A stretch of 64,000 nucleotides of DNA, from positions 17,925-81,924 of the forward strand of contig CAMOFO010000004.1 of NCBI GenBank assembly GCA_946613525.1. Direction: 5' to 3'. The DNA comes from an uncultured bacterium. Its GTDB lineage: Bacteria > Bacteroidota > Bacteroidia > Bacteroidales > Bacteroidaceae. Both the position numbers and the translations under genes were made by a program. Within the stretch, counting starts at the first letter, position 1, and each line of letters starts with the position of its first letter. Under the pieces are notes generated by a model. The model saw only the letters and a program-made list of their open reading frames with translations. It had not been told where the DNA came from and did not search any database. Shown one piece after another: positions 1 through 63,754 of this stretch.

Positions 1-966
1 GCGGTCGATGTGCTGCATATCGTCGTCGAGCGTGTGCCACGTCGGGCCAAAGGAGCTCTGCGGACAGTCCTCGAAATAGGGAATGATGTCGATGGTGGGA
101 ATGCGAGCGTATTGGTTGAGCGGCAAGTGGTCGTCGTTGATTTGACCGCCTGTTGTTTTCGGGAAATAACTTGCAAAACCGGCTTGTTCAGCGGCTCGCC
201 ACACTTTTTCGACGATGGCCGAGGCAAATTGCTGCGAGAAGCGCTCTTGGAAGAAGCGCGCGCCCTGTCCGCCCACCATATCGAGGAGGATGCCGTAGCG
301 CACTTCATAGCGTTCGGGCAGGTTTTGGGCGAAATAATTCGAACCTAAAGCCCAACTGTTATCACTTTCTGCGTGGTTTTCTTCCCATTGCGGCGTGCCC
401 CAGTCCTCAGCGTCGAAGCAAATGAAGTCGATGCCGATGCTGGGTGATGAATTTTGGGTGGTGGGTGATGATAGCAGACGTGCGATTTCAAGCATCACGG
501 CCACGCCCGAAGCAGCATCGTTGGCAGCGACGATAGGCTTGCGCCAGTTGGCCTCGTCGGGGTCGTTGTCGGCCCACGGACGACTGTCCCAATGGGCACA
601 GAGCAGCACGCGCGTGGTCAGTTCCGGACGATACTTCGCAATGATGTTCGTGGCGTGGAGCGTCGTGCCGTCGTAGCCCGTGAGGTCGGCCTGCTGCGTG
701 CTGACCTCGCATCCATATTGCCGGAATTTGCTGATAATCCAGTCCTTACACCGCTCGTGACCCTCGGTATTCATCGCACGAGGGCCGAAATCGCACTGTG
801 CAGCGCAGAAAGCGTAGGCCGAATCAGCGGAAAAAGCCGGTCCGACGGGGCCAACTTCCACCTGTTCATCGCTCGAATGCGACGAAAGAATCGCTGGCAG
901 ATAGAGGGCTGCAGCGAGCCCTATCAGCACAACGACAAGGACGATTAAAAGGATTTTCTTCTTCAA
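1..966 (-). CDS. M28-family glutaminyl-peptide cyclotransferase (glutaminyl cyclase); 3' end runs off the window
   Basis: Not in the ORF track. Manual minus-strand translation gives RVLLCAHWDSRPWADNDP...AANDAASGVAVMLEIAR...CFDAEDWG...DMVGG...NDDHLP...IPTIDII...WHTLDDD. Probable TTG start at 966 followed by KKK and a hydrophobic anchor. Confidence 0.85.
   Translation of the reverse strand, partial: MKKKILLIVLVVVLIGLAAALYLPAILSSHSSDEQVEVGPVGPAFSADSAYAFCAAQCDFGPRAMNTEGHERCKDWIISKFRQYGCEVSTQQADLTGYDGTTLHATNIIAKYRPELTTRVLLCAHWDSRPWADNDPDEANWRKPIVAANDAASGVAVMLEIARLLSSPTTQNSSPSIGIDFICFDAEDWGTPQWEENHAESDNSWALGSNYFAQNLPERYEVRYGILLDMVGGQGARFFQERFSQQFASAIVEKVWRAAEQAGFASYFPKTTGGQINDDHLPLNQYARIPTIDIIPYFEDCPQSSFGPTWHTLDDDMQHIDR
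441..475. repeat. Degenerate heptamer array (TGGGTGA-type) in frame in the glutaminyl cyclase
   Basis: tgggtga tgaattt tgggtgg tgggtga tgatagc; encodes LSSPTTQNSSP. Confidence 0.5.
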
Positions 967-1008
967 TTTTAACCTTTGACTTTTAACCTTTAACTTTTAA
1001 CCTTTAAC
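967..1008. repeat. Six alternating heptamers TTTTAAC/CTTTAAC spanning the stop codon of the C26-M19 gene
   Basis: ttttaac ctttgac ttttaac ctttaac ttttaac ctttaac. Confidence 0.9.
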
Positions 1009-2786
1009 TTCTGAGCCTCTTCCATCACGCGCAACCAGTTTCCACCCCAGATTTTACGGATGTCTTGCTCGCTGTACCTCCGGCGAAGCAGATGCATCGT
1101 GAAATTCAGCGCCTCAGACGCGTCGGCAAAGCCCGCGACACCGCCGTCGCCGTCGAAATCGGTGCCGATGCCCACGTGGTCGATACCCATCACCTTGATG
1201 GCGTGCTCCAGATGCGCGATGGCGTCAAGAATCGAGGCCTGTCCGTCTTTGCGGAGGAAGCCAGCGTAGAGTGTCGTGTGCGCCACACCACCCTTGGCCG
1301 CGAGTCGGCGCAGCTGGTCGTCGGTGAGGTTCCGCGGATGGTCGCACAGCGCCCGACAGTTCGAGTGGCTGCACACGATGGGCGTCTTGCTGATGTCAAG
1401 CGCATCGTAGAAGCTTTTTTCTGCCGCGTGGCTGAGGTCAACCATCACGCCGTGGCGGTTCATCTCGGCAATGACCTGCTCTCCGAACGGGCTCACTCCG
1501 CCATGCGTGTTGCTGCCGCGCGCCGAGTCGCAGATGTCGTTGTCGCCATTATGGCAGAGCGTGATGTAGGTCACGCCGCGCTGCGCAAATCGACCGACGT
1601 TTTCGAGCTCGTGCTCCAGCGCAAGGCCGTTTTCAATGGCCAAAACGATGGATTTCAGCCCCATTCGCTTGTTTTCACGGAGGTCGTCGGGCGTGCGGGC
1701 GAGAGCCAAATACGACTTCTGCTGCTCGACGATGGCTTCAATCTGGTCGAAAATGCCGTTGGCGTATGCATTGGGCGTGAGTCCGGCCAAATGCGGCGCG
1801 AGCGACGAGAATTCCTCGTCGGGCTTTGGCTGCGGCAGATAGGCCGCCATCGTAACGCTGTCTAAACGCCCGTCGGTCATCTTGTGCAAATCGACGAGAA
1901 TGCGCGGGTCGCGCTGTTCGAAATGAATGCCTTGCGGGAAGAACATCGGCGTGTCGCAATGGGTGTCGAGCGACAGGACTTTTTCATGTATCTTTTTGGC
2001 TTCGTGATAGTTACGAGCTTCTTCCACGAGCCATCGAAAGAGCTTCAGGCCCTCTTCCTCCAACCACTCCGGATGCCATTGCACGCCCAGAATCGGCTTG
2101 TGCTCGGTGCTTTCCATCGCCTCGATGGTGCCGTCGGGAGCCGTCGCCGTGACGCGGAATCGCCTCCCGGGGTCGTCAACGGCCTGATGGTGCAGCGAAT
2201 TCACGAAAATTCGGATTTTCTCCGTCGAATCGGCGTTTTGAGGCTTCTCGGAAGCGTAAATCTCCGCCAAGCGGCTGTCGGGTTCGATGCTCACGCTGTG
2301 CGTCGGCTCCGAGCGGTGGCCGTCTTGCGAGTGCTTGATGCTGCTGCGCTCGGAAATGTCTTGCGCAACGTGTCCGTCGAGTGCCATCGCGAGCGTCTGC
2401 ATTCCGCGGCAGATGCCGAAAATGGGAATCTGGCGGTTGTAGGCCAGGCGCGTGACGAGCAGCTCGGCCAAGTCGCGTCGCGCATTGATGCCGCCGAGCT
2501 TCGGAGCGGGTTCCTCGCCCGCCCACAGCGGGTTGTAGTCGGCACCGCCGCTGAGCAGCAGTCCGTCGAGCTGCTCCAACACACTGACAATCACGCTCTC
2601 ATCGGCCACGGGCGGAATGATGACGGGCGTGCCGCCAGCCCGCACCACCTGTTCGTAGTAGGGGTCGCGCAGGGCGGCGTCTTCGCCGGTGTGGTTGGCC
2701 GTGATGCCAATCAGCGGACGCGGCTCGGCTTCAGGAAATCTGGCGTAAATCGCCTGAAGATGCGATGGCAAGTCGAATTTCTTCAT
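990..2786 (-). CDS. Fusion of peptidase C26 (class I glutamine amidotransferase-like) and M19 membrane dipeptidase
   Basis: N-terminal half has GICRGMQ and GVQWHPE; C-terminal half has DTHCD, IENG, VDLSH, SHSN, GTDFDG. Confidence 0.9.
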   Translation of the reverse strand: MKKFDLPSHLQAIYARFPEAEPRPLIGITANHTGEDAALRDPYYEQVVRAGGTPVIIPPVADESVIVSVLEQLDGLLLSGGADYNPLWAGEEPAPKLGGINARRDLAELLVTRLAYNRQIPIFGICRGMQTLAMALDGHVAQDISERSSIKHSQDGHRSEPTHSVSIEPDSRLAEIYASEKPQNADSTEKIRIFVNSLHHQAVDDPGRRFRVTATAPDGTIEAMESTEHKPILGVQWHPEWLEEEGLKLFRWLVEEARNYHEAKKIHEKVLSLDTHCDTPMFFPQGIHFEQRDPRILVDLHKMTDGRLDSVTMAAYLPQPKPDEEFSSLAPHLAGLTPNAYANGIFDQIEAIVEQQKSYLALARTPDDLRENKRMGLKSIVLAIENGLALEHELENVGRFAQRGVTYITLCHNGDNDICDSARGSNTHGGVSPFGEQVIAEMNRHGVMVDLSHAAEKSFYDALDISKTPIVCSHSNCRALCDHPRNLTDDQLRRLAAKGGVAHTTLYAGFLRKDGQASILDAIAHLEHAIKVMGIDHVGIGTDFDGDGGVAGFADASEALNFTMHLLRRRYSEQDIRKIWGGNWLRVMEEAQKLKVKS

Positions 2787-3712: not shown

Positions 3713-3733
3713 GATTCTGTGAATCTGTGATGA

Positions 3734-4642: not shown

Positions 4643-4643
4643 T

Positions 4644-4684
4644 TTGATAATTGTTAATTGTTAATTGTTAATGTTAATTGAATT
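4644..4684. repeat. TTGTTAA heptamer array filling the gap between two FKBP genes
   Basis: ttgataa ttgttaa ttgttaa ttgttaa tgttaa ttgaatt. Confidence 0.85.
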
Positions 4685-5288: not shown

Positions 5289-5337
5289 TTTTTATGAATT
5301 TTTCTTTTATAAAAATAATAATGTGTAAAATTTCGTG

Positions 5338-5396
5338 CAAAGTTACAATTTTTCTCCGATTGTGATGCATTATTTCGAGAAAAATCATTATTTTTG
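5338..5396. promoter_or_regulatory. Divergent Bacteroidetes -7 promoter elements for the FKBP operon and cobB
   Basis: TAACTTTG on minus (5338-5345) and TATTTTTG on plus (5389-5396) match TAnnTTTG. Confidence 0.6.
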
Positions 5397-5439
5397 TGGA
5401 ATATTAAGGACTACTGAACCATTTTTATGTGATTTTGAG

Positions 5440-6147
5440 ATGAAAAAACTTGTATTTTTGACCGGTGCAGGCATGTCGGTGGAGAGTGGTTTCAAGACCT
5501 TCCGAGGTGCCGGCGGACTGTGGGAAGACTTTCCCGTGGAACAGGTGGCGAGCCACGAAGGCTGGCTCACCGACCCTGTATTAGTGAACAACTTCTACAA
5601 TCGGTTGCGCAAAAAACTGTTCGAGGCACAGCCCAACGAAGGCCACAAGCTGATTGCCGACCTGCAACGCGACTTCGACGTGACGGTCATCACGCAAAAC
5701 GTTGATAACCTGCACGAAAAGGCAGGCTCAAAAAATGTGATTCACCTGCACGGCGAGCTCACGAAAGTGTGCTCTTCCGACGACCAATTCGACGAGCGAT
5801 ACGTGTGCAAGCTGACCGAAGACAACTGCGAGGTGGCCGAGGGCGAAAAGGCTGGCGACGGCTCGCTGCTGCGCCCGTTTATCGTGTTTTTCGGCGAGAG
5901 CGTTCCTATGATTGCACCCGCCGCCGAGAAGGTGGGCGAGGCCGACGTGCTCGTCATCATCGGCACGTCGCTCAACGTGTATCCCGCGGCCGGACTCGCC
6001 CACTACGTGAAGCCCGGCACGCCCATCTACCTCATTGACCCCGACGACGTGAGCACCAGCGGCATCCCCAACCTCACGCACATCCAAAAAGGAGCGAGCG
6101 AGGGAATGAAGGAATTCGCAGAGAAGGTTAAAGGGTTAAAGAGTTAA
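5440..6147 (+). CDS. cobB: SIR2-family NAD-dependent deacylase
   Basis: LTGAGMSVESG..TFR, TQNVDNLHE, HLHG, IGTSL; start placed at ATG 5440 (MKKLVF). Confidence 0.93.
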   Translation: MKKLVFLTGAGMSVESGFKTFRGAGGLWEDFPVEQVASHEGWLTDPVLVNNFYNRLRKKLFEAQPNEGHKLIADLQRDFDVTVITQNVDNLHEKAGSKNVIHLHGELTKVCSSDDQFDERYVCKLTEDNCEVAEGEKAGDGSLLRPFIVFFGESVPMIAPAAEKVGEADVLVIIGTSLNVYPAAGLAHYVKPGTPIYLIDPDDVSTSGIPNLTHIQKGASEGMKEFAEKVKGLKS

Positions 6148-6182
6148 AGGGTTAAAGAGTTAAAGGGTTAAAGAGTTAAAGG
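6127..6182. repeat. Seven perfectly alternating octamers GTTAAAGG/GTTAAAGA containing the cobB stop codon
   Basis: Read directly; TAA at 6145-6147 lies in unit 3. Confidence 0.95.
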
Positions 6183-6231
6183 GTGAATCCTTTCAAAGAA
6201 GTAATCATAATTTTAAATTTTAATTCCAAAT

Positions 6232-7326: not shown

Positions 7327-7331
7327 TTTCT

Positions 7332-7422
7332 TTCGAGGGTACGGCGGTCAGCCTCTTCGAGGCCGAGGGTGCGAGAATACTGTTCTCGCGCCTCCGTACC
7401 CACGCACCTCCGTACCTACGAA
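7332..7422. repeat. Intergenic inverted element built from GGTACG/GGTGCG octamer arms
   Basis: Left arm ttcgagggtacgg...gagggtgcgagaa, loop tactg, right arm ttctcgcgcctccgtacccacgcacctccgtacctacgaa. Confidence 0.8.
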
Positions 7423-7434
7423 TAACTTTTTGAA

Positions 7435-8202
7435 ATGACGATGACTATCAAGAAAATAAAAGCACCCCGCGAACTGCGGGCCGAAGACGTGCCTCAGCTC
7501 ATGCTGGCGCATCAGGTGAAATACGAGAAAGTGGCGTGTTTGAACTGGGCGGAGGCATTTCCCGTGCATCCGCAGATGGAAGTGGCAATGGCGCACACGG
7601 GCGACAATCTGCTGCTACACTATCGCGTGGAAGAAGACTGCATCCGTGCCGCTGCCGAGCAAGACGGTGGGCGCGTGTGGGAAGATTCGTGCTGCGAAAT
7701 CTTCCTGCAAGCCCCATCACCCATCACCCAACACTCAACACCCAACATCCAACACCCAACACCCAGCAAAAATAATCTCCCTTCCCCGAAGGGAGGGGCC
7801 GGGGTTGAGTCGCCTTACTTCAACCTCGAATGTAACTGCGCCGGAACGCTGCTCATCGCGAAAGGTCACGACCGTCACGACCGACAGCCGGCTCCGGAAG
7901 ATGTTCTGAAAAGTGTGGGTCGATGGTCGTCGCTGACCTCAGAAGCCACGCCGCAACCCAACGGACGCTACGTGCTACCCTTGGAAAACGGTGATTTCCA
8001 CTGGCACATGGCACTCGTGGTGCCCGCCACGGCACTGTTCGGCAGCGGCATCGACGATTTCTCGGGACTCACGCTGCGCGGCAACATTTATAAATGTGGT
8101 GACTGCCTGCGCGAGCCGCATTTCCTGTCGCTGTTTCCCATCGAGACGCCCCAGCCCGACTTCCATCGGCCTGAGTTCTTTCAAGAATTGAGGTTTGAGT
8201 GA
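7435..8202 (+). CDS. Carbohydrate-binding family 9-like protein carrying an in-frame repeat insertion
   Basis: VWEDSCCE, YFNLECNCAG, GNIYKCGD, PDFHRPEFF; overlaps the 3' end of convergent argH by 22 bp. Confidence 0.8.
   Translation: MTMTIKKIKAPRELRAEDVPQLMLAHQVKYEKVACLNWAEAFPVHPQMEVAMAHTGDNLLLHYRVEEDCIRAAAEQDGGRVWEDSCCEIFLQAPSPITQHSTPNIQHPTPSKNNLPSPKGGAGVESPYFNLECNCAGTLLIAKGHDRHDRQPAPEDVLKSVGRWSSLTSEATPQPNGRYVLPLENGDFHWHMALVVPATALFGSGIDDFSGLTLRGNIYKCGDCLREPHFLSLFPIETPQPDFHRPEFFQELRFE
7714..7811. repeat. Eight CCAACAC-type heptamers followed by a REP-like palindrome, in frame
   Basis: ccatcac ccatcac ccaacac tcaacac ccaacat ccaacac ccaacac ccagcaa, then ctcccttccccgaagggaggggccggggttgagtc (7777-7811). 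Confidence 0.9.
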
Positions 8203-9568: not shown

Positions 9569-9597
9569 CTGAACTCCTGAACTCCTGTAACTCCTCA
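9569..9597. repeat. CTGAACTC octamer array forming the argG-argH spacer
   Basis: ctgaactc ctgaactc ctgtaactc ctca; includes the argG TGA. Confidence 0.85.
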
Positions 9598-21724: not shown

Positions 21725-24700
21725 ATGAAAAAGATGATGCTTTTTGCTTGCGCCCTGCTGTTTGCAGTCACCACGCAGGCACAGTGGGACTTCAGCACTG
21801 ATACAGACTACTTACTGAAGCACGTCACGTCGGGCAAGTACCTGCTCTTGCACGATAGTTACGAAGAAACCAACCAAGTGAATGCCACAACGCTGGAAGG
21901 CGAAGGCTCGCTGTTCACCATCACGAAGAAAGGCAGCGGCTACGTGTTCACCAAAAAAGGCACGGAACTGACCTTGAGCCTCTCGACCAACGGTAAGTTT
22001 GCCGGATGGAACACCTCGAACAAGGGTGGCACCGCATGGACACTCGCCGATGCCGGCGACGACTGCGTCTATATCAAGTCGAGCAAAGGCTACCTCGCTC
22101 CCAACGACGGCGGCGGGGCTGGCGCGTATGTCTATACCGACAAGGGTGAAGGCAGCAACTCGAAGTGGCAAATCGTCGATGCTGTGGGCGAGCTCCCGAA
22201 CTACGTCAGCACCATCACCAGCGGCAAATACTACCGGCTGGTGAGCTACACGAACTCGGGAGTGTCGATGACCGACGGCGGCGGCGGACTGGTCACCTCG
22301 GCCAGCAGCAAGAAGAACTACAGCCAAGTATGGCTGCTGACTGCCAACGGCACGGGCTACAAGTTCCAGAACCTGCTCACCGGAAAGTACATCACAAGCG
22401 CACCCGGCACCAGCAACCAGTGGAAAACGGGCAACTCAGGTGCCACTTTCTACGTTGGAACATCGACCGCTGACGACAAGACGCTCTTCTTCTTCTCGAC
22501 AACGAAAAGCGGCAGCGGAGCCAATCCGAACACCTACGACGCCCTGCACTCCGCACCCCACCAGAGCAACAACGTGGTGGGATGGGTAGGCAACGCCGAC
22601 GCCTCGAAATGGATGTTGGACATGGTCGATGAAACCAAAATCGACTTCGACGCCATCCACGACCTGCAGCAGGCCGTGAATACCAACTATACCAACCAGC
22701 TGACGAACTTCTACGAAGACTACGCCTGCACACAGCTCAAGAGCGAATTCGCCTCGATGAGCGACGACGCACTGCGCGAGGCCATGAGTGCCCTGCCCTC
22801 CACACTGCGCGAGGAGGCCGTGCGCGTGAAGAACGACAAGTGGAACGACAACGCCACTTGGAACAAATACGAGAAAGACTTCCGCATCCACGACTATGAG
22901 GTCTATTCCGAACCCGGCGTCTGGGCCAACAAGCTCAGCCTCGGAGCCTTCGGGCGCCTCACCCAGCCCACGGGCATCCGCCTGAAGTCGGGCGACTTGG
23001 TGTTCCTGCACGTCAACGCCAATGTGGCCGACAGCGACGGACACCTCTATGCCGAACTGGTGTCGGGCGTGGATCTCTACGGAACACAAGTCACGCTGAA
23101 GCGCGGCTACAACGCTATCGTCGCATCCAACGACTGCGAAATCTTCATCACCTACAACTGCACGAACACAGAAAAGAAACTCTCGAACTATCCCAATATC
23201 AAGGTTCACATTGTCGGCGGCACGTGCAACGGCACCTTCGACATGAGTCGCGGCCACACCGAGAAGGACTGGAAGTGGCTCCTGCAGAATATGTTCAGCG
23301 ACACCTACCTGCACCTGCGCTCGCAGTACCACGTGATGAACTGCTACCTCGACCGCGTGAAAAACGCCGAGAACATGACGGGGGCACTGAAAATCTGGGA
23401 CTTCGTGTTCGAGAACCTCGAAAAACTCATGACCACGCGATTCAACGACGGCTATTACCGCCCGATTATGCTCGTGTTCGATGCCTCGGGCAATAATCCC
23501 AACTGGTCGTGGGGCCGCGTCTCCATGCCTGGAATGTGGGGCAACGGCGCACTCAACTACAACAGCCTGCTCTACACAGGCGGAGCTGGCGGACAACAGT
23601 GGGTCATCGAGCACGAGGAAGGCCATGGCCACCAGAATCCCATCAACCTCAGCGGAACCACTGAGGTCAGCAACAACGGTCTGGCACAGATCGTGAACCA
23701 CCTCTGGGGCTATCGTACCAGCCGTGGACGCGCCCAGCACCACACCTACGACTACTTCAACGAGGGTGTGGCTTGGGTCGATTACCCACGCCGACCCGAA
23801 TGCCTGTGGCTGACCAACAAACTGTGGTATCAGCTCTGGCTCTACTTCCACATGAAGGGCGACGACGGCTTCTTCGCACGCTGGATGGACAAGCTCCGCG
23901 CCATGGACGGCGGCATCAAGAAGGCCGGCGGCAACAACATCGCCCGCCAGACAGCCTCGCGCACCATCTCCGAACTGCAAGGAAAGACCAGCACATGGGG
24001 CAGCTGGACCAGCGAATACATGCGCATGGCACTGGCCGCCTGCGAAGCCTCGCAGACCGACCTCTACGAGTTCTTCAAGATGTGGGGATTCTTCGGCTTC
24101 TCCGACGAGGTGAAGACCACTGGAGACTTCGACGACACGAAGAACGGCATCTACCGCATCAGCGACTATTCCCACTTCTTCGTGCGTGTGCCCATCCGCG
24201 GCAACAAGGTCGATGAAGACGCCATCAAGTGGTGCAAGGACAAGATGCAGAGCTATCCTAACAAGGCTCCCGGCGCGATGTTCATCAACGACACGGGCGA
24301 ACTCACGCAAATCGACGCCGATGCCGAATGTCTGAAATACGACCCGAAACTGGCCGGCACCAAGCGGCAGTATGCCGACGGCGAATCCCAACAGAACCAA
24401 AACGGACTGGGCACCTACACCCACTTCGGCAAGAACGAGCTGACAACCCTGACCTTCAAGGTCAGCGGCACGAGAGTGATTGTCACGGGCAACGGCGCTG
24501 TGGGCTTCAAGATCTATGACGACAAGGGAGAACTCGTCTGGGTGAGCAACAGAAAATCATTCACGACGAACAGCACCATCGCCGAAGGCATCACCAACGG
24601 CACCTACTCGCTCGTGGCCTCGCTCGGCGACGACACCGACCTGCTGCTCAGCGGTCCTGAAACCGATTATGCCAAGAATGATCCGAATGGCATCAATACA

Positions 24701-24820
24701 GTTGATAGTTCAAAGTTGACAGTTGATAGTTATTATACTATCGACGGTGTGAAGCTCATCGGGAAACCAACCAAGAAAGGCATCTACATCGTAGATGGCA
24801 AAAAAGTGGTCGTGAAGTAA
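21725..24820 (+). CDS. T9SS-secreted M60-like zinc metallopeptidase, paralog of 13160-16201
   Basis: HEEGHGHQ...GTTEVSNN; collinear with the first copy; T9SS CTD. Confidence 0.8.
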   Translation: MKKMMLFACALLFAVTTQAQWDFSTDTDYLLKHVTSGKYLLLHDSYEETNQVNATTLEGEGSLFTITKKGSGYVFTKKGTELTLSLSTNGKFAGWNTSNKGGTAWTLADAGDDCVYIKSSKGYLAPNDGGGAGAYVYTDKGEGSNSKWQIVDAVGELPNYVSTITSGKYYRLVSYTNSGVSMTDGGGGLVTSASSKKNYSQVWLLTANGTGYKFQNLLTGKYITSAPGTSNQWKTGNSGATFYVGTSTADDKTLFFFSTTKSGSGANPNTYDALHSAPHQSNNVVGWVGNADASKWMLDMVDETKIDFDAIHDLQQAVNTNYTNQLTNFYEDYACTQLKSEFASMSDDALREAMSALPSTLREEAVRVKNDKWNDNATWNKYEKDFRIHDYEVYSEPGVWANKLSLGAFGRLTQPTGIRLKSGDLVFLHVNANVADSDGHLYAELVSGVDLYGTQVTLKRGYNAIVASNDCEIFITYNCTNTEKKLSNYPNIKVHIVGGTCNGTFDMSRGHTEKDWKWLLQNMFSDTYLHLRSQYHVMNCYLDRVKNAENMTGALKIWDFVFENLEKLMTTRFNDGYYRPIMLVFDASGNNPNWSWGRVSMPGMWGNGALNYNSLLYTGGAGGQQWVIEHEEGHGHQNPINLSGTTEVSNNGLAQIVNHLWGYRTSRGRAQHHTYDYFNEGVAWVDYPRRPECLWLTNKLWYQLWLYFHMKGDDGFFARWMDKLRAMDGGIKKAGGNNIARQTASRTISELQGKTSTWGSWTSEYMRMALAACEASQTDLYEFFKMWGFFGFSDEVKTTGDFDDTKNGIYRISDYSHFFVRVPIRGNKVDEDAIKWCKDKMQSYPNKAPGAMFINDTGELTQIDADAECLKYDPKLAGTKRQYADGESQQNQNGLGTYTHFGKNELTTLTFKVSGTRVIVTGNGAVGFKIYDDKGELVWVSNRKSFTTNSTIAEGITNGTYSLVASLGDDTDLLLSGPETDYAKNDPNGINTVDSSKLTVDSYYTIDGVKLIGKPTKKGIYIVDGKKVVVK
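24700..24731. repeat. AGTTGAN heptamer array in the linker before the T9SS CTD
   Basis: agttgat agttcaa agttgac agttgat agtt. Confidence 0.8.
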
Positions 24821-27507: not shown

Positions 27508-29403
27508 ATGATGATAGAACAGCAAATTGTGGGCGGCGTCGTGGCTGCCGTGAGTGAGTTATACGGCCAGACCGTGGCCGAAAATCAGGTGCAGCTGCAG
27601 AAAACGCGCAGCGAATTCGAGGGAAACCTCACGGTGGTGACGTTTCCGTTTGTGCGGATGGCGCGAAAAAGCCCCGAACAGGTCGGTGAAGACATCGGAC
27701 AGTGGCTCGTGGCGCATCGCAGCGAGGCAGTGGGCGGTTTCAACGTCGTGAAGGGCTTCCTGAACCTCGTTGTGGCTCCGCAGGCGTGGCTACAGCTGCT
27801 CGCCGACATCGACCATGACGAGAATTGGGGTTATAAAGCCCCCCTGTCGTCCCCCGAGGGGGACACAAATGTCCAAAACAAGGGTAATGAAGCCCCCTCG
27901 GGGGCAGTAGGGGGGGGCTTATGTATGATTGAATACTCCTCGCCCAACACCAACAAACCGCTGCACCTCGGCCACGTCCGCAACAACCTGCTCGGTTGGT
28001 CGCTGGCGAAAATTATGGAGGCCAACGGCTGGAAAGTAGTAAAGACGAACATCGTCAACGACCGCGGTATCCACATCTGTAAGTCGATGCTCGCGTGGCA
28101 GAAGTGGGGCAACGGCGAAACGCCCGAGTCGAGCGGCAAGAAAGGCGACCACCTCATCGGCGACTACTATGTGCTTTTCGACAAGCACTATCGCGAGGAA
28201 ATCAAGCAACTCGTGGCCGGCGGCATGGACGAGGAGCAGGCTAAGCAAGAGGCTCCGCTCATCAAGGAAGCACGCGAGATGCTCGTGAAATGGGAGCAGA
28301 ACGACCCCGAGGTGCGCGCGCTGTGGAAGATGATGAACGACTGGGTGTATGCCGGATTCGACGAGACCTACAAGGCGCTCGGCGTGTCGTTCGATAAGAT
28401 TTACTACGAGTCGGAAACCTACCTCGCAGGCAAGAAAAAAGTCGAAGAAGGCCTCGAAAAAGGGCTCTTCTTCCGCAAGGACGACGGCTCAGTATGGGCC
28501 GACTTCACCGACGAGGGCCTCGACCAAAAGCTCCTGCTGCGTAGCGACGGCACCAGCGTCTATATGACGCAAGACATCGGCACGGCGCAGATGCGCTTCA
28601 ACGACTACCCCATCGACAAGATGATCTACGTCGTGGGCAACGAGCAAAACTACCATTTCCAAGTGCTCTCGCTGCTGCTCGACCGCCTCGGCTTCAAGTG
28701 GGGCAAGGAACTCGTGCATTTCTCCTACGGCATGGTGGAGCTGCCCAGCGGCAAGATGAAGTCGAGGGAGGGCACCGTGGTCGATGCCGACGACCTGATT
28801 GCGTCGATGATTGAAAACGCCCGTCGGATGAGCGAAGACAAGGTGAACAAGCTCGAAGGCATCAGCGACGAGGAAAAGAGCGAAATCGCCCGCATCGTGG
28901 GCATGGGAGCCCTGAAATACTTCATCCTGAAGGTCGATGCCCGAAAAAACATGCTTTTCAACCCCGAGGAAAGCATCGATTTCAATGGCAACACGGGGCC
29001 GTTCATTCAATATACGCACGCGAGGATCAGGAGTATTCTTCGGAGGTACGAAGCCACGGAGGTACGGAGGTGCGAGAATAGTTCAAGTGCAGAGACTAAT
29101 CTCGTACCCCCGAACCCCCGAACCCCCGAACCCCCGAATGCTAAAGAAACCGCCCTCATCCAGAAACTCAGCGAGTTCCCCGCCGTCGTCGAGCAGGCAG
29201 GCAAGGACTATTCGCCCTCGGGCATCGCCAACTACTGCTACGAGCTGACGAAAGAGTTCAACCAGTTCTATCACGACTACAGCATCCTCAACGCCGAGAC
29301 CGACGAAGCCCGACAGCTGCGCCTCACCATCGCCCGCAACGTGGCCAAAACGCTGAAAAACGGCATGGCGCTGCTCGGAATCGAAGTACCAGAGAGGATG
29401 TAA
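27508..29403 (+). CDS. argS: Arginyl-tRNA synthetase with two in-frame repeat insertions
   Basis: IEYSSPNTNKPLHLGHVRN, GKMKSREG, GNTGPFIQY, LLGIEVPERM. Confidence 0.97.
   Translation: MMIEQQIVGGVVAAVSELYGQTVAENQVQLQKTRSEFEGNLTVVTFPFVRMARKSPEQVGEDIGQWLVAHRSEAVGGFNVVKGFLNLVVAPQAWLQLLADIDHDENWGYKAPLSSPEGDTNVQNKGNEAPSGAVGGGLCMIEYSSPNTNKPLHLGHVRNNLLGWSLAKIMEANGWKVVKTNIVNDRGIHICKSMLAWQKWGNGETPESSGKKGDHLIGDYYVLFDKHYREEIKQLVAGGMDEEQAKQEAPLIKEAREMLVKWEQNDPEVRALWKMMNDWVYAGFDETYKALGVSFDKIYYESETYLAGKKKVEEGLEKGLFFRKDDGSVWADFTDEGLDQKLLLRSDGTSVYMTQDIGTAQMRFNDYPIDKMIYVVGNEQNYHFQVLSLLLDRLGFKWGKELVHFSYGMVELPSGKMKSREGTVVDADDLIASMIENARRMSEDKVNKLEGISDEEKSEIARIVGMGALKYFILKVDARKNMLFNPEESIDFNGNTGPFIQYTHARIRSILRRYEATEVRRCENSSSAETNLVPPNPRTPEPPNAKETALIQKLSEFPAVVEQAGKDYSPSGIANYCYELTKEFNQFYHDYSILNAETDEARQLRLTIARNVAKTLKNGMALLGIEVPERM
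27836..27920. repeat. Inverted doublet of REP-like palindromes (REPIN-like) in frame in argS
   Basis: aagcccccctgtcgtcccccgagggggac...gccccctcgggggcagtaggggggggctt. Confidence 0.9.
29039..29138. repeat. Inverted octamer-arm element in frame in argS
   Basis: ttcggaggtacgaagccacggaggtacggaggtgcgagaatag...ctaatctcgtacccccgaacccccgaacccccgaacccccgaa. Confidence 0.9.
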
Positions 29404-37765: not shown

Positions 37766-38742
37766 GAATGATAGCAAACAATGGTGTTGCCATCGAACTG
37801 CTCGCGGCGGAACGCCGTGGCTGTTTCGGGGATTTTCGGGGAAAGAGTTGAAGGTTGAGGGTTGAGGGTTGAGGGTTGAAGGTTGAGGGCTTTTTCCACG
37901 CGGATTTCGTCCCAGAGATTTTTGTCGAGAAACGACTGGAGCGTTTCCCTGCCTCCCTCGACAATGAGCGACTGCAGCTGCTGCTCGCGGCATCGCTCAA
38001 AAAGTTCTTCTATTGTTCGACACTCATTTTCCGCCTCCATCATAGCCCCCTCTCCTCGAATTACAAACCTCACCGGATTTTTGCCCGCCCACTCCCTCAC
38101 ATTGAGTTGCGGATGCTCGCGCTCCCACGTGACGCGTCCCACGACGATGGCATCTTCCTCGGCGCGAAGCTTATGGACGAGCATTTTCGTGAACGGCGTA
38201 GAGATGGCGAGGGGGTTTCCGCAGTCGTCGAGGTAGCCGTCGGCGGTTTGCGCCCATTTCAGGATGATGTAAGGTCGGTTTTTCTCGTGGAAAGTGAAAA
38301 AACGGCGGTTTAGATGGCGACATTCCTTTTCGAGCACACCCACGACAACTTCGATGCCGGCATCACGAAGCCGTTTGACGCCGCGCCCCTGCACCTCGGC
38401 AAACGGGTCGATGCAACCCACGACGACGCGGCGAACACCCTTTCGGACGATGAGGTCGCTGCAGGGTGGCGTTTTCCCGTGGTGCGAGCAGGGTTCGAGC
38501 GACACGTAGAGCGTGGCCTCGGGCAGCAGTTTTTCGTCGTCGGCGCTCACCGACGCAAAGGCGTTCACCTCGGCGTGGCCCTCGCCACAGCGCACGTGGT
38601 AGCCCTCGCCCAGAATCCGCCCGCCGGCCACGATCACACAGCCCACCATCGGATTCGGTCGCGACAGGTTTCGTCCGCACGCCGCCAGTTGGATGCAGCG
38701 TCGCATGAATTTTTCGTCAGTCAACGTTTGTGATTTCTCCAT
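37762..38742 (-). CDS. ribD: Bifunctional riboflavin deaminase/reductase
   Basis: PNPMVG, HAEVNA, LEPCSHHGKTPPC, LKWAQTADG, IVEGG; start placed at ATG 38742. Confidence 0.95.
   Translation of the reverse strand: MEKSQTLTDEKFMRRCIQLAACGRNLSRPNPMVGCVIVAGGRILGEGYHVRCGEGHAEVNAFASVSADDEKLLPEATLYVSLEPCSHHGKTPPCSDLIVRKGVRRVVVGCIDPFAEVQGRGVKRLRDAGIEVVVGVLEKECRHLNRRFFTFHEKNRPYIILKWAQTADGYLDDCGNPLAISTPFTKMLVHKLRAEEDAIVVGRVTWEREHPQLNVREWAGKNPVRFVIRGEGAMMEAENECRTIEELFERCREQQLQSLIVEGGRETLQSFLDKNLWDEIRVEKALNLQPSTLNPQPSTLSPKIPETATAFRREQFDGNTIVCYHS
37847..37888. repeat. Six GTTGAGG/GTTGAAG heptamers (42 nt) in frame in ribD
   Basis: Encodes LNLQPSTLNPQPST. Confidence 0.95.
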
Positions 38743-38761
38743 TTTTTCGTATATTTGCACC

Positions 38762-39793
38762 ATGACTTACCGCGAACTCTGTCAGCGGCTGGCCTCGGTC
38801 TATGACATGGACGAGGCTCGCGCCGTGGTCCGCCTGCTTCTCGGCGAGCGATTCGGCTTGTCGATGGCCGACATTTTGTGCGACAAAGTTACGGAATTAT
38901 CGGCAGACGACCGCACGGAATTGGAAAAAATGATGCGTCGGCTTGAAAATGGCGAGCCCGTGCAGTATGTGCTGGGCTATGCCACGTTCTGCGGTCGGCG
39001 CTTTCGCGTGACTCCCGACGTGCTGATTCCACGGCCAGAAACCGAAGAACTTTGCCAATGGCTGATCTCGGGAGTTCAGGAGTTCGGGAGTTCAGGAGTT
39101 CAGGAGAAATCTCACTCCACACTCCACACTCCACGCTCCACACTCCTCACTCCTCACCCCTCACTCCACACTCCTCACTCCTCACTCCACACTCCACACT
39201 CCACACTCCTCACTCCACACTCCTCAATATTAGACATCGGAACGGGCAGCGGCTGCATTGCCGTGACACTGGCGGCGGAGTGGCCCGAGGCGCAGGTATC
39301 GGCATGGGACATTTCCGAAAAAGCCCTGAAAATCGCGCGGGAGAATGCGGAGCGGAACGGCGCAAATGTTGATTTCGAGCAAGTCGATATCCTAAACCCA
39401 TTCAACCCTCAACCCTCAACCCTCAACATTCAACACCTAACACCCAACACCCAACACCCAACACTCAACACCCAGCACCCAACCTTCAACATTCTCATCA
39501 GCAACCCGCCCTACGTTTGCGAGAGCGAGAAAGCAGCGATGGAACGGAACGTGCTGCAACACGAGCCGCACTTGGCGCTCTTCGTGCCCGACGACGACCC
39601 TCTGCGCTTCTATCGCGCCATCGCCGAGTATGCCCGCCACGCGCTGAAGCCCAACGGATGGCTGTTTTTTGAAATCAACCCTGCGTATGCCGACGACATC
39701 GTGCAGATGCTGCAAGAAATGCAGTTCGAACAAGTGACGCTGAAAACAGATTCGTTTGGAAAAAAGCGGTTTTTAAGAACTAAAATCAAATAA
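38762..39793 (+). CDS. prmC: Release factor glutamine methyltransferase with two large repeat insertions
   Basis: EPVQYVLG, VLIPRPETEEL, LDIGTGSGCIA, ISNPPY, EPHLALF, FFEIN. Confidence 0.95.
   Translation: MTYRELCQRLASVYDMDEARAVVRLLLGERFGLSMADILCDKVTELSADDRTELEKMMRRLENGEPVQYVLGYATFCGRRFRVTPDVLIPRPETEELCQWLISGVQEFGSSGVQEKSHSTLHTPRSTLLTPHPSLHTPHSSLHTPHSTLLTPHSSILDIGTGSGCIAVTLAAEWPEAQVSAWDISEKALKIARENAERNGANVDFEQVDILNPFNPQPSTLNIQHLTPNTQHPTLNTQHPTFNILISNPPYVCESEKAAMERNVLQHEPHLALFVPDDDPLRFYRAIAEYARHALKPNGWLFFEINPAYADDIVQMLQEMQFEQVTLKTDSFGKKRFLRTKIK
39071..39226. repeat. 4.5 GGAGTTCA octamers followed by 16 C(A/T)CACTC heptamers, in frame in prmC
   Basis: Counted directly: octamers 39071-39106, heptamers 39111-39222. 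Confidence 0.97.
39402..39492. repeat. 13 TCAACCC/CCAACAC heptamers in frame in prmC
   Basis: Counted directly; lies just before NPPY. Confidence 0.97.
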
Positions 39794-49305: not shown

Positions 49306-49388
49306 ATTCTTTTCGTTTTATGGATTACACGTTTTGTTTGACTTTCTCCGAGTCTAAAAGTTGCTATTTGTTTCAGATTATTAACAAT

Positions 49389-49420
49389 TCAACACCTCAA
49401 CATTCAACCCTCAACATTCA
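49389..49420. repeat. TCAACAT/TCAACCC heptamers beginning at the bamA stop codon
   Basis: tcaacacc tcaacat tcaaccc tcaacat tca. Confidence 0.8.
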
Positions 49421-52114
49421 AAACTCTTGTCCGAGAATAAAGTGGAAGTGCGAGCCGCCACGCTTCAGATTGCGGTCTTGGTAGATTTTGTCGAAGCCGT
49501 AGGCCCAGTCGATACCCATCAGACCGACCATCGGCAGGAAGATGCGCACGCCGATGCCTGCCGAGCGTTTCATGTTGAAGGGATTGAATTTCTTCGCGTC
49601 GGCCCACGCGTTACCGCCTTCGAGGAAGGCCAGTCCATAGATGGTGGTGTTACCGAGCATGAAGGGATAGCGCAGTTCGAGCGTGAAGCGGTCGTAGGCG
49701 TAGGCGTTGTAGTAGCTGCTCGTGCCGGCCTCGAAGGCTGCGGTGTTCGAGATGGAGCCGTTTTCATAGCCGCGCAGTCCGATGGTTTCCTCGGCGTAGC
49801 CATAGCTGTAGCCGCTCATGCCGTCGCCACCCACGTAGAAGGTCTCGAAGGGCGATTTCTTGTACTGGTTATAGGCTCCGAGGAGACCGAACTCCACGCG
49901 CGTCATCAGCACCAAGGGCTTCGCGCCTCGCGTGAGTGCCGTGAAGGTGCGTCCCTTGAACTTCCATTTGTGGTATTCAATCCAGCGATATTTCTCTTGT
50001 TGCTCTTGCGAATAGGTGGCCGAATAGGGGTTGTTGGCCAGATTCTTGTAGTCTTTCTTGTCCCAGAGCGACCATGGCGGCGTGAGCTGCACCGAGGCCG
50101 TGAACTCCGAGCCGCTGCGCGGGAAGAGCGGGTTGTCGGTAGAGGAGCGGCTGAGCGAGAGGTTCAGGCTGATGTTGTTGGCGTTTCCGTTGCTCATGAT
50201 GGCGAAATATTGCCAGTTTTTGAGCGAGTAGCGCGTGAAGGAGAGCTGGGCCGAGAGGAAGAAATAGTCGTCGGGCCAGCGCAGTCGCTTACCCCATCCG
50301 AGCGTTACGCCGTAGAGCTTGATGTATTTGTCGGGGTCGTAGTAGTTTTCGTAGTTGTTGTAATAATAGTTGTTGCCGTAGCCATAGAGCATATTCATAT
50401 AGTTGTTCATATAGCCGCTGTTGTAGTAGGAGCTCGACACGTCGGTCTGCTTCGAAAAGAACGCGCTCACGGAGAACTGGATGGGGCGCTTGTTGCCGAA
50501 CCAGTTGGTGGAGTAGCTCGCGTTGTACGACTGGTAATAGCGTCCGTTGGTCTGCGCATTGATGCCGAGCGTTTCGCCGTCGCCGATGGGCATGATGCCG
50601 CGGTGTTCCTTGTTCTTGTTGAAGAGGTTGGCCATCGAGAAGTTGTTGAGCTTCAGACCCACGCGTCCGATGATGCCCGTCTGTCCCCATCCGAGCGAGA
50701 ACTCGACTTGGTCGTTCGATTTCGACTCCAGATTCCAGTTGATATCGACCGTGCCGTTCTCGCCATTGGGCTTTACATCAGGCTCCATTTTCTCGGGGTC
50801 GAAATGTCCCGACGAGGCAATTTCACGCGCCGAACGCATCAGTGCGTCCCTTGAGAAGAGGTCGCCGGGCTTGGTGCGCAGCTCGCGGCGGATGACGTTC
50901 TCGTAGAGGCGGTCGTTGCCGTTGATGCGCACGCGGTTGATGTAGGCCTGCGGGCCTTCGGAAATGCGCACTTCGAGGTCGATGGAGTCGCCCTCGGTCT
51001 TGATTTCAGTGGGTTGGATTTGGCAGAAGAGGTAGCCGTTGTTCCAATATTCGTTGCTGATGGCGTCTTCGTCGGAATGGAGGCGACTATTCAGCAGTTT
51101 CTGGTTATAGACGTCGCCCTTCTTCATGTCGAGCACGCGCACGAGGGCATCGGTGGGATAAACCGTGTTGCCCACCCACGAAATGTTTCTAAGGAAATAT
51201 TTCTGGCCCTCATCCACCTTCACATACACGTTCACATGCTTCGGGTCCACCGTCCACACGCTGTCTTCCACAATCATGGCATCGCGGAAGCCCATTTCAT
51301 TGTACTTATCCAAGAGGCTTTTCTTGGCCTCTTTCCAACGCTCGGGCGTGAATTTCTTGGCCTTGAAAAGGGTGGCGAGCTTGCCGGCCTCGTTCACTTT
51401 CCCCAGCGCGCCTTTTTTGAACAGTCCGCCCTTGATTTTCTTGTCGGGGAGTTGGTCGTTGCCCTCGATGATGATGCTGCGCACCTTCATTTTCTCCTTT
51501 TTGTCGATGACGATGTCGAGAATCACCTTGTTTTTCTCTGCCACGTCGTCGCGCTGCATCACGTCGATTTCAGCGTTTTGGAAGCCCTTGTCGTCGAAAT
51601 ATTTCTTGGCGAGCAGCTTGGCGCGGTCGAGCACGTTGGGATGGATGCTCATGCCGCTGGTGAGGCCGAGTTTCTTCTCAAGGTCGTCGCGCTCCGACTT
51701 CTTGATGCCCACGTAGTTGATTTGCGACACGCGCGGCCGTCCGGCCAGTGCCACGTGCAGATAGATGCGGTTGCCCACGATGGAATCGGCGGAAATCGAC
51801 ACCTCGGAGAAGAGTCCGTGGCGCCAATAGCGCTTCACGGCATCGGTGATTTGCGAGCCCGGCACCTCAATTTCCTGTCCTACGGTGAGACCCGAGATGC
51901 CCGCAATGGCATAGTCTTCGTAGCCGTCCATGCCCGAGATGTTGATGCCTCCGAGGACGTAGGTGCGCGGCGTGCCAGCATAGGTGATGTCGGGGTATTC
52001 GATGACATCCTGGGCTCTCAAAGTGAAAAGTGAAGAGTGAAAAGTGAACAATGCCAGGAGCACGATTCCTTTCCACGTGTCGCTTTTCTTTCTACTTTCT
52101 AAGATATATCTCAT
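49418..52114 (-). CDS. bamA: Outer membrane protein assembly factor BamA
   Basis: POTRA repeats, VIRRELRTKPG, LRGYEN, C-terminal FHFILGQEF; start placed at ATG 52114. Confidence 0.95.
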   Translation of the reverse strand: MRYILESRKKSDTWKGIVLLALFTFHSSLFTLRAQDVIEYPDITYAGTPRTYVLGGINISGMDGYEDYAIAGISGLTVGQEIEVPGSQITDAVKRYWRHGLFSEVSISADSIVGNRIYLHVALAGRPRVSQINYVGIKKSERDDLEKKLGLTSGMSIHPNVLDRAKLLAKKYFDDKGFQNAEIDVMQRDDVAEKNKVILDIVIDKKEKMKVRSIIIEGNDQLPDKKIKGGLFKKGALGKVNEAGKLATLFKAKKFTPERWKEAKKSLLDKYNEMGFRDAMIVEDSVWTVDPKHVNVYVKVDEGQKYFLRNISWVGNTVYPTDALVRVLDMKKGDVYNQKLLNSRLHSDEDAISNEYWNNGYLFCQIQPTEIKTEGDSIDLEVRISEGPQAYINRVRINGNDRLYENVIRRELRTKPGDLFSRDALMRSAREIASSGHFDPEKMEPDVKPNGENGTVDINWNLESKSNDQVEFSLGWGQTGIIGRVGLKLNNFSMANLFNKNKEHRGIMPIGDGETLGINAQTNGRYYQSYNASYSTNWFGNKRPIQFSVSAFFSKQTDVSSSYYNSGYMNNYMNMLYGYGNNYYYNNYENYYDPDKYIKLYGVTLGWGKRLRWPDDYFFLSAQLSFTRYSLKNWQYFAIMSNGNANNISLNLSLSRSSTDNPLFPRSGSEFTASVQLTPPWSLWDKKDYKNLANNPYSATYSQEQQEKYRWIEYHKWKFKGRTFTALTRGAKPLVLMTRVEFGLLGAYNQYKKSPFETFYVGGDGMSGYSYGYAEETIGLRGYENGSISNTAAFEAGTSSYYNAYAYDRFTLELRYPFMLGNTTIYGLAFLEGGNAWADAKKFNPFNMKRSAGIGVRIFLPMVGLMGIDWAYGFDKIYQDRNLKRGGSHFHFILGQEF
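52022..52049. repeat. Four AGTGAA(A/G/C) heptamers encoding part of the BamA signal peptide
   Basis: agtgaaa agtgaag agtgaaa agtgaac; encodes LFTFHSSLFT. Confidence 0.9.
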
Positions 52115-52133
52115 AGCTGTTATTTTTCGTTTT

Positions 52134-52886
52134 TCACTTTTCGTTTCCTTCCACCTGCGCCTCGGTCTTTCCGAAACGACGCTGGCGGCTCTGGAAGCTT
52201 TCGATGGCCTTGTGCAGGTCGGCTTCGGCGAAGTCGGGCCAGTAGGTGTCGCAGAAATAGAGCTCGGAATAGGCGATTTGCCAGAGCAGATAGTTCGAGA
52301 TGCGCAACTCGCCACCCGTGCGGATGAGCAGGTCGGGGTCGGGCATGAAGCGCGTCTGCAAGTGCTGGGCGACGGTTTCCTCGGTGATGTCTTTGGGGAA
52401 GAGTCCACCCGTTTTCAGGAATTTTGTCGTTCCAAGCGAGTCGTGGACTTCCGCCACGATTTCCCTGACGGCCTCGGCAATTTCCCAACGGCTTGAGTAG
52501 CTCAGCGCCACCACCATTGTCATAGTGTCGTTTCCGGCAGTGTGTTCCTCGGTTTCGCGCAGTTTCTGCTGCACGTCGTCGGGCAGTCGCTTCATGTCGC
52601 CGATGACGCGGAATCGCACGTTGTGCTTCATGAAAATCTCGTCTTCGAGCGAGGTCAGCACGAGTCCCATCAGGGCCGACACCTCGTCGGCAGGACGGTT
52701 CCAGTTTTCCGTCGAGAAGGTGTAGAGCGTGAGGTATTTCACGCCCAGCCGCACACATTCGGCGGTGATTCGCCGCACGGTTTCCACGCCGGCCTGATGT
52801 CCGGCATTGCGGGGCATTCCCTTCTCGGTGGCCCAGCGTCCGTTGCCGTCCATGATGATGGCGATATGTTCGGGTATTTTCTTCAT
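52134..52886 (-). CDS. uppS: Undecaprenyl diphosphate synthase
   Basis: [40 protein letters not shown]. Confidence 0.97.
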
Positions 52887-54970: not shown

Positions 54971-55003
54971 CAAGAGAAAAAATGGTTATAGTGTGTTATG
55001 ATG

Positions 55004-55912: not shown

Positions 55913-55981
55913 AAGGGGAGTGAAAGGGGAGTGAAGGGGACGAATGTCTGAACTTCTGAAACACCTGTAACTCCTGAACTA
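55913..55981. repeat. Composite intergenic repeat (AAGGGGAGTGA x2-3 plus CTGAACT-type octamers)
   Basis: aaggggagtga aaggggagtga aggggacgaa tgt ctgaactt ctgaaacac ctgtaactc ctgaacta. Confidence 0.8.
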
Positions 55982-57142: not shown

Positions 57143-57143
57143 A

Positions 57144-58823: not shown

Positions 58824-58859
58824 TTTTTTTGCGTTTAGGTTGATGGCTGTAATTTTGTT

Positions 58860-60356: not shown

Positions 60357-60359
60357 TAT

Positions 60360-61880: not shown

Positions 61881-61915
61881 AACTGTAATCTATTTACTTT
61901 GAACTATTAACTGGA

Positions 61916-63682: not shown

Positions 63683-63719
63683 ATTCTTTACTTTTTTTAT
63701 GTTGTTTATTTCTATCTAT

Positions 63720-63754
63720 TCCCTCCCATTCAGGGGAGGGTTAGGGAGGGGTCT
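63720..63754. repeat. REP-like palindrome abutting the susC stop codon
   Basis: tccctcccattcaggggagggttagggaggggtct. Confidence 0.85.

Follow-up and report, generated by a model that had tools for sequence, protein, structure and literature searches.

We analysed a 64-kb window on contig C4 of a rumen/gut Prevotella genome (G000: 2.115 Mb, 69 contigs, 82.5% complete), where "window" refers to this whole stretch of DNA. The genus assignment is taken from the source names of PrmC homologs. The window carries many short head-to-tail arrays of 7- and 8-nt units, located both between genes and within them. On balance we think it probable that they represent, within Bacteroidales, the repeat class described elsewhere as long simple sequence repeats (SSRs) or short tandemly repeated repetitive (STRR) sequences, with slippage changing their length and selection on reading frame and stop codons acting as a filter. 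The arrays survive only where they are tolerated, namely at gene junctions, at protein termini, in linkers and in surface loops.

Tandem Repeats Finder (TRF) was run on the window, taking as an array any run in which a 7- or 8-nt unit is present in three or more copies. This identified 16 loci, and runs of at least 3 copies in the window are almost exclusive to these two periods; TRF made three further calls with longer units (Table 1). A first-pass annotation of the same DNA had listed 21 sites, of which 16 are clear arrays. The remaining five (441, 7332, 16084, 27467 and 41351) proved to be only degenerate traces of 2-3 units that fall below the TRF threshold, and two arrays, at 29106 and 55951, were absent from its list.

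Over the whole genome, there are 273 arrays of period 7 with at least 3 copies, compared with 1.3 in triplet shuffles and 4.7 in fifth-order Markov (Markov-5) simulations, and 115 arrays of period 8, compared with 1.7 and 2.7. Periods 6, 10 and 11 are slightly elevated (34, 16 and 24 arrays, respectively) and the remaining periods are approximately at background. The density is approximately one array per 5.5 kb. A phase probe that is independent of the unit sequence, consisting of AAC or AAT repeated five times at a set spacing, gave a consistent picture: spacing 7 returned 34 loci for AAC and 60 for AAT, spacing 8 returned 13 and 29, shuffles returned none at either spacing, and spacings 5, 6, 9 and 10 returned 0-1 loci. 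It is therefore clear that the excess of periods 7 and 8 proposed in the first-pass annotation is genuine, and it is very large: the genome has 273 and 115 arrays where the null models give 1-5.

Many of the units consist of AAC followed by pyrimidines, corresponding to GTT followed by purines on the other strand, and the earlier description of the units as GT plus a purine-rich tail on one strand was accurate; a second group of units contains AATT. Within the arrays, imperfect and variant units are mixed as in a mosaic, often with a perfect higher-order periodicity of 14, 16 or 21 nt. Different unit types do abut, as had been noticed at the outset: 46 pairs of neighbouring arrays lie no more than 80 nt apart, where about 8 are expected. 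Of these pairs 6 are inverted-like, and an inverted partner within 150 nt was found for 41 of 462 arrays (5 expected). Inverted pairing was therefore rejected as a general rule, and the window contains a single inverted pair, 52020/52123. For the eight commonest units the flanks were compared at every locus, and arrays that share a unit were found to have unrelated flanks without shared termini.

In crude calls of open reading frames (ORFs), 103 of the 388 arrays of periods 7 and 8 are intergenic, 98 lie across an ORF end and 187 are inside ORFs, 140 of these being more than 150 nt from either ORF end. Units that are not a multiple of three nucleotides long are thus not confined to intergenic DNA. 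Pfam matches place window arrays within the DALR domain of arginyl-tRNA synthetase (ArgRS) and within the CBM9, racemase-family and PrmC domains, with the reading frame intact. Within ORFs, the stop-free AAC strand is the sense strand in 64 cases, compared with 21 for the other strand. Rickettsia palindromic elements provide a parallel, in that they too are repeat DNA tolerated in frame in conserved proteins; however, they are palindromic elements of ~100-150 bp with a conserved sequence and do not vary in unit steps, unlike the tandem 7-8-mers described here.

Strain variants were compared as proteins, using sequences from a large protein collection. Among PrmC variants that are 93-99% identical outside the repeat tracts, both tracts vary by blocks of 7 residues, equivalent to 21 nt or three heptamers, so that copy number varies at a fixed site between close strains at the protein level. 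All 11 of the strain variants compared keep the reading frame, and tract lengths step by 7 residues. The first-pass annotation had suggested that orthologous loci might reveal empty sites, and these do exist. The more distant PrmC ortholog P0080 (282 aa) contains neither tract, while the loop following QHDLPLL in the racemase-family protein, which is NFQLSTFNSQL in this genome and NCKLSIVNCKL in other relatives, is empty in P0137 and P0172. Because of these empty sites, the arrays can be described as insertions relative to the orthologs. Taken together, the 7-residue steps in PrmC and the empty sites point to slippage that is filtered by the reading frame.

Judging from these alignments, existing arrays gain and lose whole units, and the only changes seen within genes are those that keep the frame (three heptamers, or 7 residues). 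Arrays within genes mostly have the stop-free strand as the sense strand. The length changes would arise by slippage during replication, with an optimum near 7-8 nt. Some sites appear to be long-lived array loci at which the unit family has been replaced, either over time or by recombination; the turnover of units at such loci could proceed by mutation followed by slippage-driven homogenisation, or by allelic recombination. Phase-variable (contingency) SSR loci were also considered as a class and were rejected: the coding arrays lie in housekeeping enzymes, and the frame is kept in all 11 variants.

The first-pass annotation took the view that slippage would not favour a period of 7. This premise is not supported. 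Long SSRs with units of 5-11 nt have been described in which heptanucleotides are the commonest class in many bacteria, and slippage has been suggested as their origin (Mrazek, Guo and Shah 2007, PNAS 104:8472, as cited in PMC4679880 and PMC4692102); the strain differences described above are also whole-unit steps. As that work is summarised in the two citing papers, the present arrays resemble its long SSRs in exceeding chance length, in the dominance of heptamers and in being patchy among lineages. The arrays here also consist of head-to-tail units within the 5-11-nt range, and the same units recur without shared flanks. There are two differences from the published class as summarised there. 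The ten richest genomes came from Burkholderia, cyanobacteria, actinobacteria and Xanthomonas, with no Bacteroidales among those ten, and units that are not a multiple of three stay outside genes, whereas here about a third or more of the arrays are in ORFs (PMC4679880; PMC4692102).

Several dispersed families of this kind have been published. STRR heptamers are found in Calothrix and Nostoc, with GGGAATC in Xanthomonas and GGGGAYT in Nostoc (PMC4692102). These are similar to the present arrays in that favoured units occur at dispersed loci, length varies at conserved positions and there are occasional inverted pairs; they differ in being mostly intergenic and G-rich and in using one or a few units, whereas here the units, of the GTT-plus-purine and AATT types, run to dozens, octamers are included and arrays are frequently in frame in coding sequence. 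Direct repeats of TAACTGA occur in marine Beggiatoaceae, some cyanobacteria and five Bacteroidetes, as short arrays of 2-6 copies a few nucleotides from start codons and sometimes in ORFs, as here, and other heptamers occur in intergenic regions of Gramella and Aequorivita, with empty sites in relatives (PMC4679880). TAACTGA is, however, a single unit, proposed to be the site of a translational regulator and to have spread horizontally, in contrast to the many unit families seen across a whole order here (PMC4679880). The closest match in size and layout is provided by Geobacter metallireducens, whose repeat families consist of about four hepta- or octamers in tandem and occupy dozens of sites between and within genes (PMC2700814); that organism belongs to another phylum, its units are GC-rich and were read as regulator binding sites, and the report makes no comparison of strains or clades. 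The suggestion that the window holds an undescribed system was therefore overstated, given that dispersed hepta- and octamer families in and between genes are already in the literature (PMC2700814; PMC4679880; PMC4692102). Our search, limited to the literature available to us, found nothing on heptamer arrays in Prevotella or Bacteroidales, nor on four-helix-bundle genes associated with repeats. We therefore conclude that the kind of repeat is known and that the lineage is new.

The occurrence of arrays in other genomes was analysed using a six-copy AAY heptamer probe, which detects only AAY-phased heptamers. Within the genus, 125 of 150 Prevotella genomes (83%) contain probe matches, with a median of 25; G000 has 69, placing it at about the 70th percentile of the genus. 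In a sample of Bacteroidales with approximately one genome per genus and G000 excluded, 119 of 150 (79%) contain matches. By comparison, matches were found in 29 of 121 Clostridia genomes, nearly all of them from 1-2 loci. Units that are common to the genus include AACTCTC, AACATTC, AACACTC and AACTCCTG, and other families use other units. The array trait is therefore a feature of the clade as a whole, unevenly distributed among its members, and is not an element of this one genome. Gut metagenomes from 11 studies, those of sheep among them, contain DNA nearly identical to that of the window, with about half of the sampled words present.

A few Clostridia metagenome-assembled genomes (MAGs; for example G420 and contig C94 of G326) carry the Prevotella-type units AACACTC and AACTATT, some of them on very short contigs; these arrays could be contamination introduced by binning and not native to the genomes.

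Plain slippage does not entirely suffice to account for the arrays, and several observations weigh against the interpretation that we prefer. First, the 388 arrays draw on no more than 73 heptamer and 37 octamer unit types, and 133 of them are built from just eight units, the commonest ones. Second, the excess of period 7 over shuffles is +19 at 2-2.5 copies and +85 at 4-5 copies and falls beyond that, while periods 6 and 9 show a steady decay from 2 copies upward; this copy-number spectrum was taken from TRF score 16, because the mode seen at score 30 is partly an artefact of the threshold. The peak at 4-5 copies implies a typical array size of ~30 nt, as in Geobacter. Third, exact two-copy duplications of 7-8 nt outside arrays number 125 compared with 83, a ratio like that for period 6; a general process of 7-nt duplication was accordingly rejected, as two-copy duplicates show no special excess. 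Fourth, the unit family can differ at a given site between close relatives: at PrmC site 1, P0009 and P0011 have another repeat peptide, EERGTRNED (from a unit of the GAGGAAC type), and the racemase-family loop in a 95%-identical relative is PSPITHHPSP, implying another unit family. Fifth, array load is uneven within the genus: 25 of 151 Prevotella genomes (G000 included) have no probe matches and 24 have more than 100, so that a fixed property of the polymerase is not an easy explanation. Slippage thus leaves unaccounted for the seeding of new arrays, the small number of unit families, and the presence of the same families in the arms of the PF05635 cassettes described below. The first-pass annotation had proposed a dedicated trans-acting process that writes or spreads the arrays. 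In its favour are the few unit families, the mode of 4-5 units and the replacement of the unit family at one site, which plain slippage would not lead one to expect; the process itself is hypothetical.

Among the gene families that the first-pass annotation had named as possibly bracketed by arrays, the four-helix-bundle or intervening-sequence (IVS) proteins do have inverted arrays on both sides of their genes, and their occurrence co-varies with array load in Bacteroidales. These genes belong to PF05635 (23S_rRNA_IVP; TIGR02436, four helix bundle protein), for which the nearest solved structure is 2RLD. G000 contains three clear members, C18:14791-15156(-), C26:5466-5864(+) and C29:20054-20434(-) (loci L123-L125), and all three are wedged between host genes on the same strand and enclosed by reverse-complementary arrays of 8-10-mers. 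No other gene in G000 was found to have a gene-sized enclosure by inverted arrays. Contig C4 has no PF05635 match, and the window holds only solo arrays. By their layout, the three loci are IVS-like stem-loop cassettes located outside rRNA. When the whole cassette (491 nt) is folded as RNA, the arms pair in both the minimum-free-energy and the centroid structures, with a z score of -1.26, which is not significant. Of 30 PF05635 copies in a further five Prevotella genomes, 23 are bracketed by complementary arrays; for mismatched flank pairs the figure is 3.5%. The unit, with a period of 6-11 nt, is specific to each copy, and the two arms co-vary. One PF05635 protein gave a sub-threshold match to Avd, at 37.6 bits against a cut-off of 80.

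The cassettes are similar to the ORF-bearing IVSs of 23S rRNA in Coxiella burnetii (S23p) and Leptospira, in which a PF05635-family ORF occupies the loop of a long stem, and in Coxiella burnetii strain-variable GACAGAT heptamers precede the S23p ORF (PMC4990558). They differ from the rRNA elements in lying between protein-coding genes and in having stems that consist entirely of tandem units.

Five Prevotella species (loci L093, L094, L097, L098 and L099, in G103, G097, G069, G127 and G005) carry a PF05635 cassette at the same host junction, which precedes a gene that begins with MAKNISFTLHFWRQNG or similar. The arm units differ between the species and the arms stay complementary, which suggests either an old insert with co-evolving arms or a recurrent target site.

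It is possible, if rather unlikely, that the dispersed arrays and the inverted-array PF05635 cassettes constitute one system, in which seeding is dedicated and slippage only resizes; solo arrays would then be cassette arms or their remnants, or sites that are made, copied or bound by the PF05635 family. The distribution of the gene agrees with this: PF05635 is present in 77 of 82 Prevotella genomes with at least 20 probe matches and in 8 of 34 with at most one (Spearman 0.62, kinship ignored), and in the order sample in 62 of 67 array-rich and 20 of 37 array-poor genomes (Spearman 0.57, again ignoring kinship). Both correlations depend on a probe limited to AAY-phased heptamers, and both count against slippage as a complete explanation. 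In five array-poor genomes only 5 of 19 PF05635 copies are armed, that is, flanked by complementary arrays. Armed PF05635 copies and dispersed arrays travel together. Solo arrays match the cassette arm units of G000 itself in 58 of 457 cases, compared with 4-8 for letter-shuffled units, and the arms of the C18 cassette and of locus L095 are matched by the window arrays at 6126 and 9569/39071. The bracketing of all three copies in G000 and of most copies in the other five genomes, the restriction of gene-sized enclosures in G000 to this family, and the heptamers of the Coxiella IVS point in the same direction.

On the other side, approximately 90% of arrays have no inverted partner (41 of 462 have one), and there are exceptions to the association in both directions. 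The genomes G070, G188 and G225 are array-rich without PF05635, and G295, G226 and G266 have PF05635 in several copies, all unarmed, with no probe matches; PF05635 is therefore neither necessary nor sufficient. There is no association in Clostridia, where 10 of 28 genomes with probe matches have the gene, as do 26 of 92 without matches. The PF05635 protein is a small helical bundle without known enzymatic activity, and neither target-site duplication nor movement was seen. The wider claim, that the arrays of Bacteroidales, and by extension the heptamer excess of many bacteria, reflect dedicated seeding or maintenance tied to PF05635, with solo arrays as spin-offs or targets of cassettes, we regard as more doubtful still.

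The arrays might instead be cis-acting elements under selection, either sites bound by a single-strand nucleic-acid-binding protein or spacers for tuning translation or mRNA processing at operon junctions, with selection setting both the typical size and the unit families. The characteristic size of 4-5 units and the small number of families would be expected on this basis. Many arrays also abut start or stop codons: in the window, the array at 4644 is 1 nt from an ATG, that at 9569 fills a gene junction and that at 6126 supplies a stop codon. Regulatory roles have been proposed for the similar repeats of Beggiatoaceae and Geobacter (PMC4679880; PMC2700814). We nevertheless consider a general cis-acting role improbable. 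A regulatory function is unlikely for the 187 arrays inside crude ORFs, 140 of them deep inside and essential enzymes included, and copy number and unit family differ among close strains. Moreover, whole species within the genus are free of arrays.

We think it very improbable that the arrays are non-autonomous elements of the miniature inverted-repeat transposable element (MITE) or repetitive extragenic palindromic (REP) type, moved by a REP-associated tyrosine transposase (RAYT) or another transposase, or that they are written from a template by a reverse transcriptase (RT). Identical units do occur at many unlinked loci, and arrays cluster with each other and with GC-rich palindromes, as might be expected for mobile elements. 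However, arrays with the same unit lack conserved termini and their flanks differ at every locus, and arrays change by unit steps and not as whole elements. Matches to Y1_Tnp/RAYT are absent from G000 (82.5% complete) and from the array-rich genomes G016 and G038, yet Y1_Tnp is present in many array-free genomes, among them G006, G040, G067, G080 and G153, and thus bears no relation to array load. RVT_1 and DUF559 show no pattern with array load in a screen of five genomes. None of the three families that the first-pass annotation had proposed for a co-occurrence check in addition to PF05635, namely RAYT, reverse transcriptases and DUF559, tracks array load, and both its mobile-element and its templated-addition proposals are therefore unsupported. 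Diversity-generating retroelements or other RT-templated sequences were likewise rejected, the single RT of G000 being a defence RT similar to retron type VI.

This RT is encoded at C3:3432-4298 (L127:1933-2799) and is retron-like (PADLOC RT_VI, E = 1e-70). It matches the NCBIfam retron St85 family below the cut-off, and a 404-aa ORF without a family match comes after it. From these matches, it is probably part of an anti-phage retron.

The preference of bacteria for 7-nt units has been a question since 2007, and the sole published idea, that it reflects the polymerase footprint, is a proposal. Prevotella offers a natural experiment in this respect, as a single cultivable genus in which some species have hundreds of arrays and others none; the contrast opens the way to comparative and genetic tests, and PF05635 is one concrete candidate correlate. 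Strain-variable peptides rich in His/Pro/Thr/Ser or in Asn/Gln are added by the arrays to essential enzymes, namely PrmC, ArgRS, RibD, the racemase-family protein and a RibF-like protein. Gene callers can be misled, since stop-free arrays lengthen ORFs. For metagenomics of the rumen and gut, the arrays can serve directly as strain markers.

The arrays and weaker repeats of the window are listed in Table 1 together with their genic context.

Table 1. Tandem arrays of the 64-kb window, with the start of the corresponding TRF call and the position relative to genes.
Position	Unit and copy number	TRF start	Context
441..471	degenerate GGGTGAT-like trace, ~3 units		below TRF threshold; 7332, 16084, 27467 and 41351 equally weak
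967..1010	(TTTAACC/TTTTAAC) x5.9, period-14 higher order	968	over stop of M19 dipeptidase/C26 gene 990-2786(-); GTTAAAG on the - strand, sense for both neighbouring genes
4644..4680	(TTGTTAA) x5.4	4644	ends 1 nt upstream of ATG of gene 3734-4642(-)
6126..6184	(GGTTAAAG) x7.4, perfect 16-nt higher-order repeat	6126	includes stop codon of SIR2-family gene 5335-6147(+); unit is the arm unit of the C18 four-helix-bundle cassette
7387..7420	16-mer x2.1 with ACCTCCGT-type octamers	7387 (16-mer)	just upstream of CBM9 gene start
7713..7765	(CCCAACA/CCCATCA) x7.6	7713	in CBM9_2 gene 7435-8202(+), residues ~93-110; Pfam match cut in two
9569..9595	(CTGAACTC) x3.2	9569	fills junction of arg genes 9595-10824(-) and 8181-9566(-)
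24698..24731	(ACAGTTG) x4.9	24698	C-terminal region of M60-like peptidase 21725-24820(+)
29041..29071	(CGGAGGTA) x3.9	29041	in frame, DALR anticodon-binding domain of ArgRS 27508-29403(+)
29106..29138	(ACCCCCGA) x4.1, perfect	29106	second in-frame array of the ArgRS DALR domain
37847..37889	(GTTGAGG) x6.1	37847	in frame, C-terminal tail of RibD 37762-38763(-), past RibD_C domain
39071..39106 (+)	(GGAGTTCA) x4.5, 36 nt	39071	in frame in PrmC; encodes SGVQEFGSSGVQ
39113..39223 (+)	(CACTCCA) x15.9, 111 nt	39113	in frame in PrmC, immediately N-terminal to GTGSG motif; 7-residue steps among strains, other unit family in two variants
39402..39491 (+)	(TCAACMC) x12.9, 90 nt	39402	in frame in PrmC, immediately N-terminal to NPPY; 7-residue steps among strains, missing from P0080
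47385..47417	(AAGTTGA) x4.7	47385	in frame, Asp/Glu-racemase-family gene 46842-47714(-), residues ~99-110; in relatives this loop is empty or has other unit families
49387..49421	(ATTCAAC) x4.9	49387	junction just past BamA stop (49418); sense (-) strand reads GTTGAAT
52020..52048	(AAAGTGA) x4.1	52020	5' part of BamA ORF (BamA N-terminus)
52123..52146	(TTTTTCG/TTTTCAC) x3.4	52123	approximate complement of 52020-52048; "hairpin" pair in 5' part of BamA ORF
55913..55978	(AAGGGGAGTGA) x2.6 then (AACTCCTGA) x3.1	55913 (11-mer), 55951 (9-mer)	between convergent genes 54998-55885(+) and 55979-57142(-, major facilitator superfamily)

Several of the genes in Table 1 merit comment. The longest ORF for PrmC (38693-39793) begins 23 codons upstream of the start that is common to all close homologs (MTYRELCQ), and the true start is probably at 38762, to judge from these homologs. 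The two paralogous M60-like peptidases (13160-16201 and 21725-24820) both carry repeat-derived sequence past Peptidase_M60_C, clear in the second (24698) and a trace in the first (16084). Gene 8181-9566(-) resembles argininosuccinate lyase by its motifs, Pfam confirmation being lacking. Among species-representative genomes its best matches are Clostridia MAGs (Ruminococcaceae and Acutalibacteraceae), with up to 75% identity, and no Bacteroidales were found among its best 80 matches; this pattern would fit horizontal acquisition of the arg gene pair.

Beyond the window on the same contig, a RibF-like gene (C4:105996-107042; locus L126) has a GFFDGVHQGHQ motif, again without Pfam confirmation. 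It contains three in-frame repeat tracts, at the N-terminus, QFNPQPSPTTHQPSTINHQNSTLNPQNSTF and VQEFRSSEVQEFRSSGVQEFRS, and would thus be a housekeeping enzyme that has been colonised repeatedly. The arrays at C4:106000/106734 had been considered as a second cargo cassette; this was rejected, as the two arrays lie within the one RibF-like gene.

Finally, perfect GC-rich hairpins with a stem of 8 bp and a loop of 3-6 nt are approximately three times as frequent genome-wide as in shuffles (104 compared with 37). Their stems are mostly C- or G-runs, of the type CTCCCC...GGGGAG, and they may represent another family of dispersed repeats or, alternatively, terminators. Of 93 such loci, 13 lie no more than 60 nt from an array, where 3.6 are expected. 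Those in the window are at 3598-3618 and 48193-48213, with an imperfect one at ~7790-7812, following an array.

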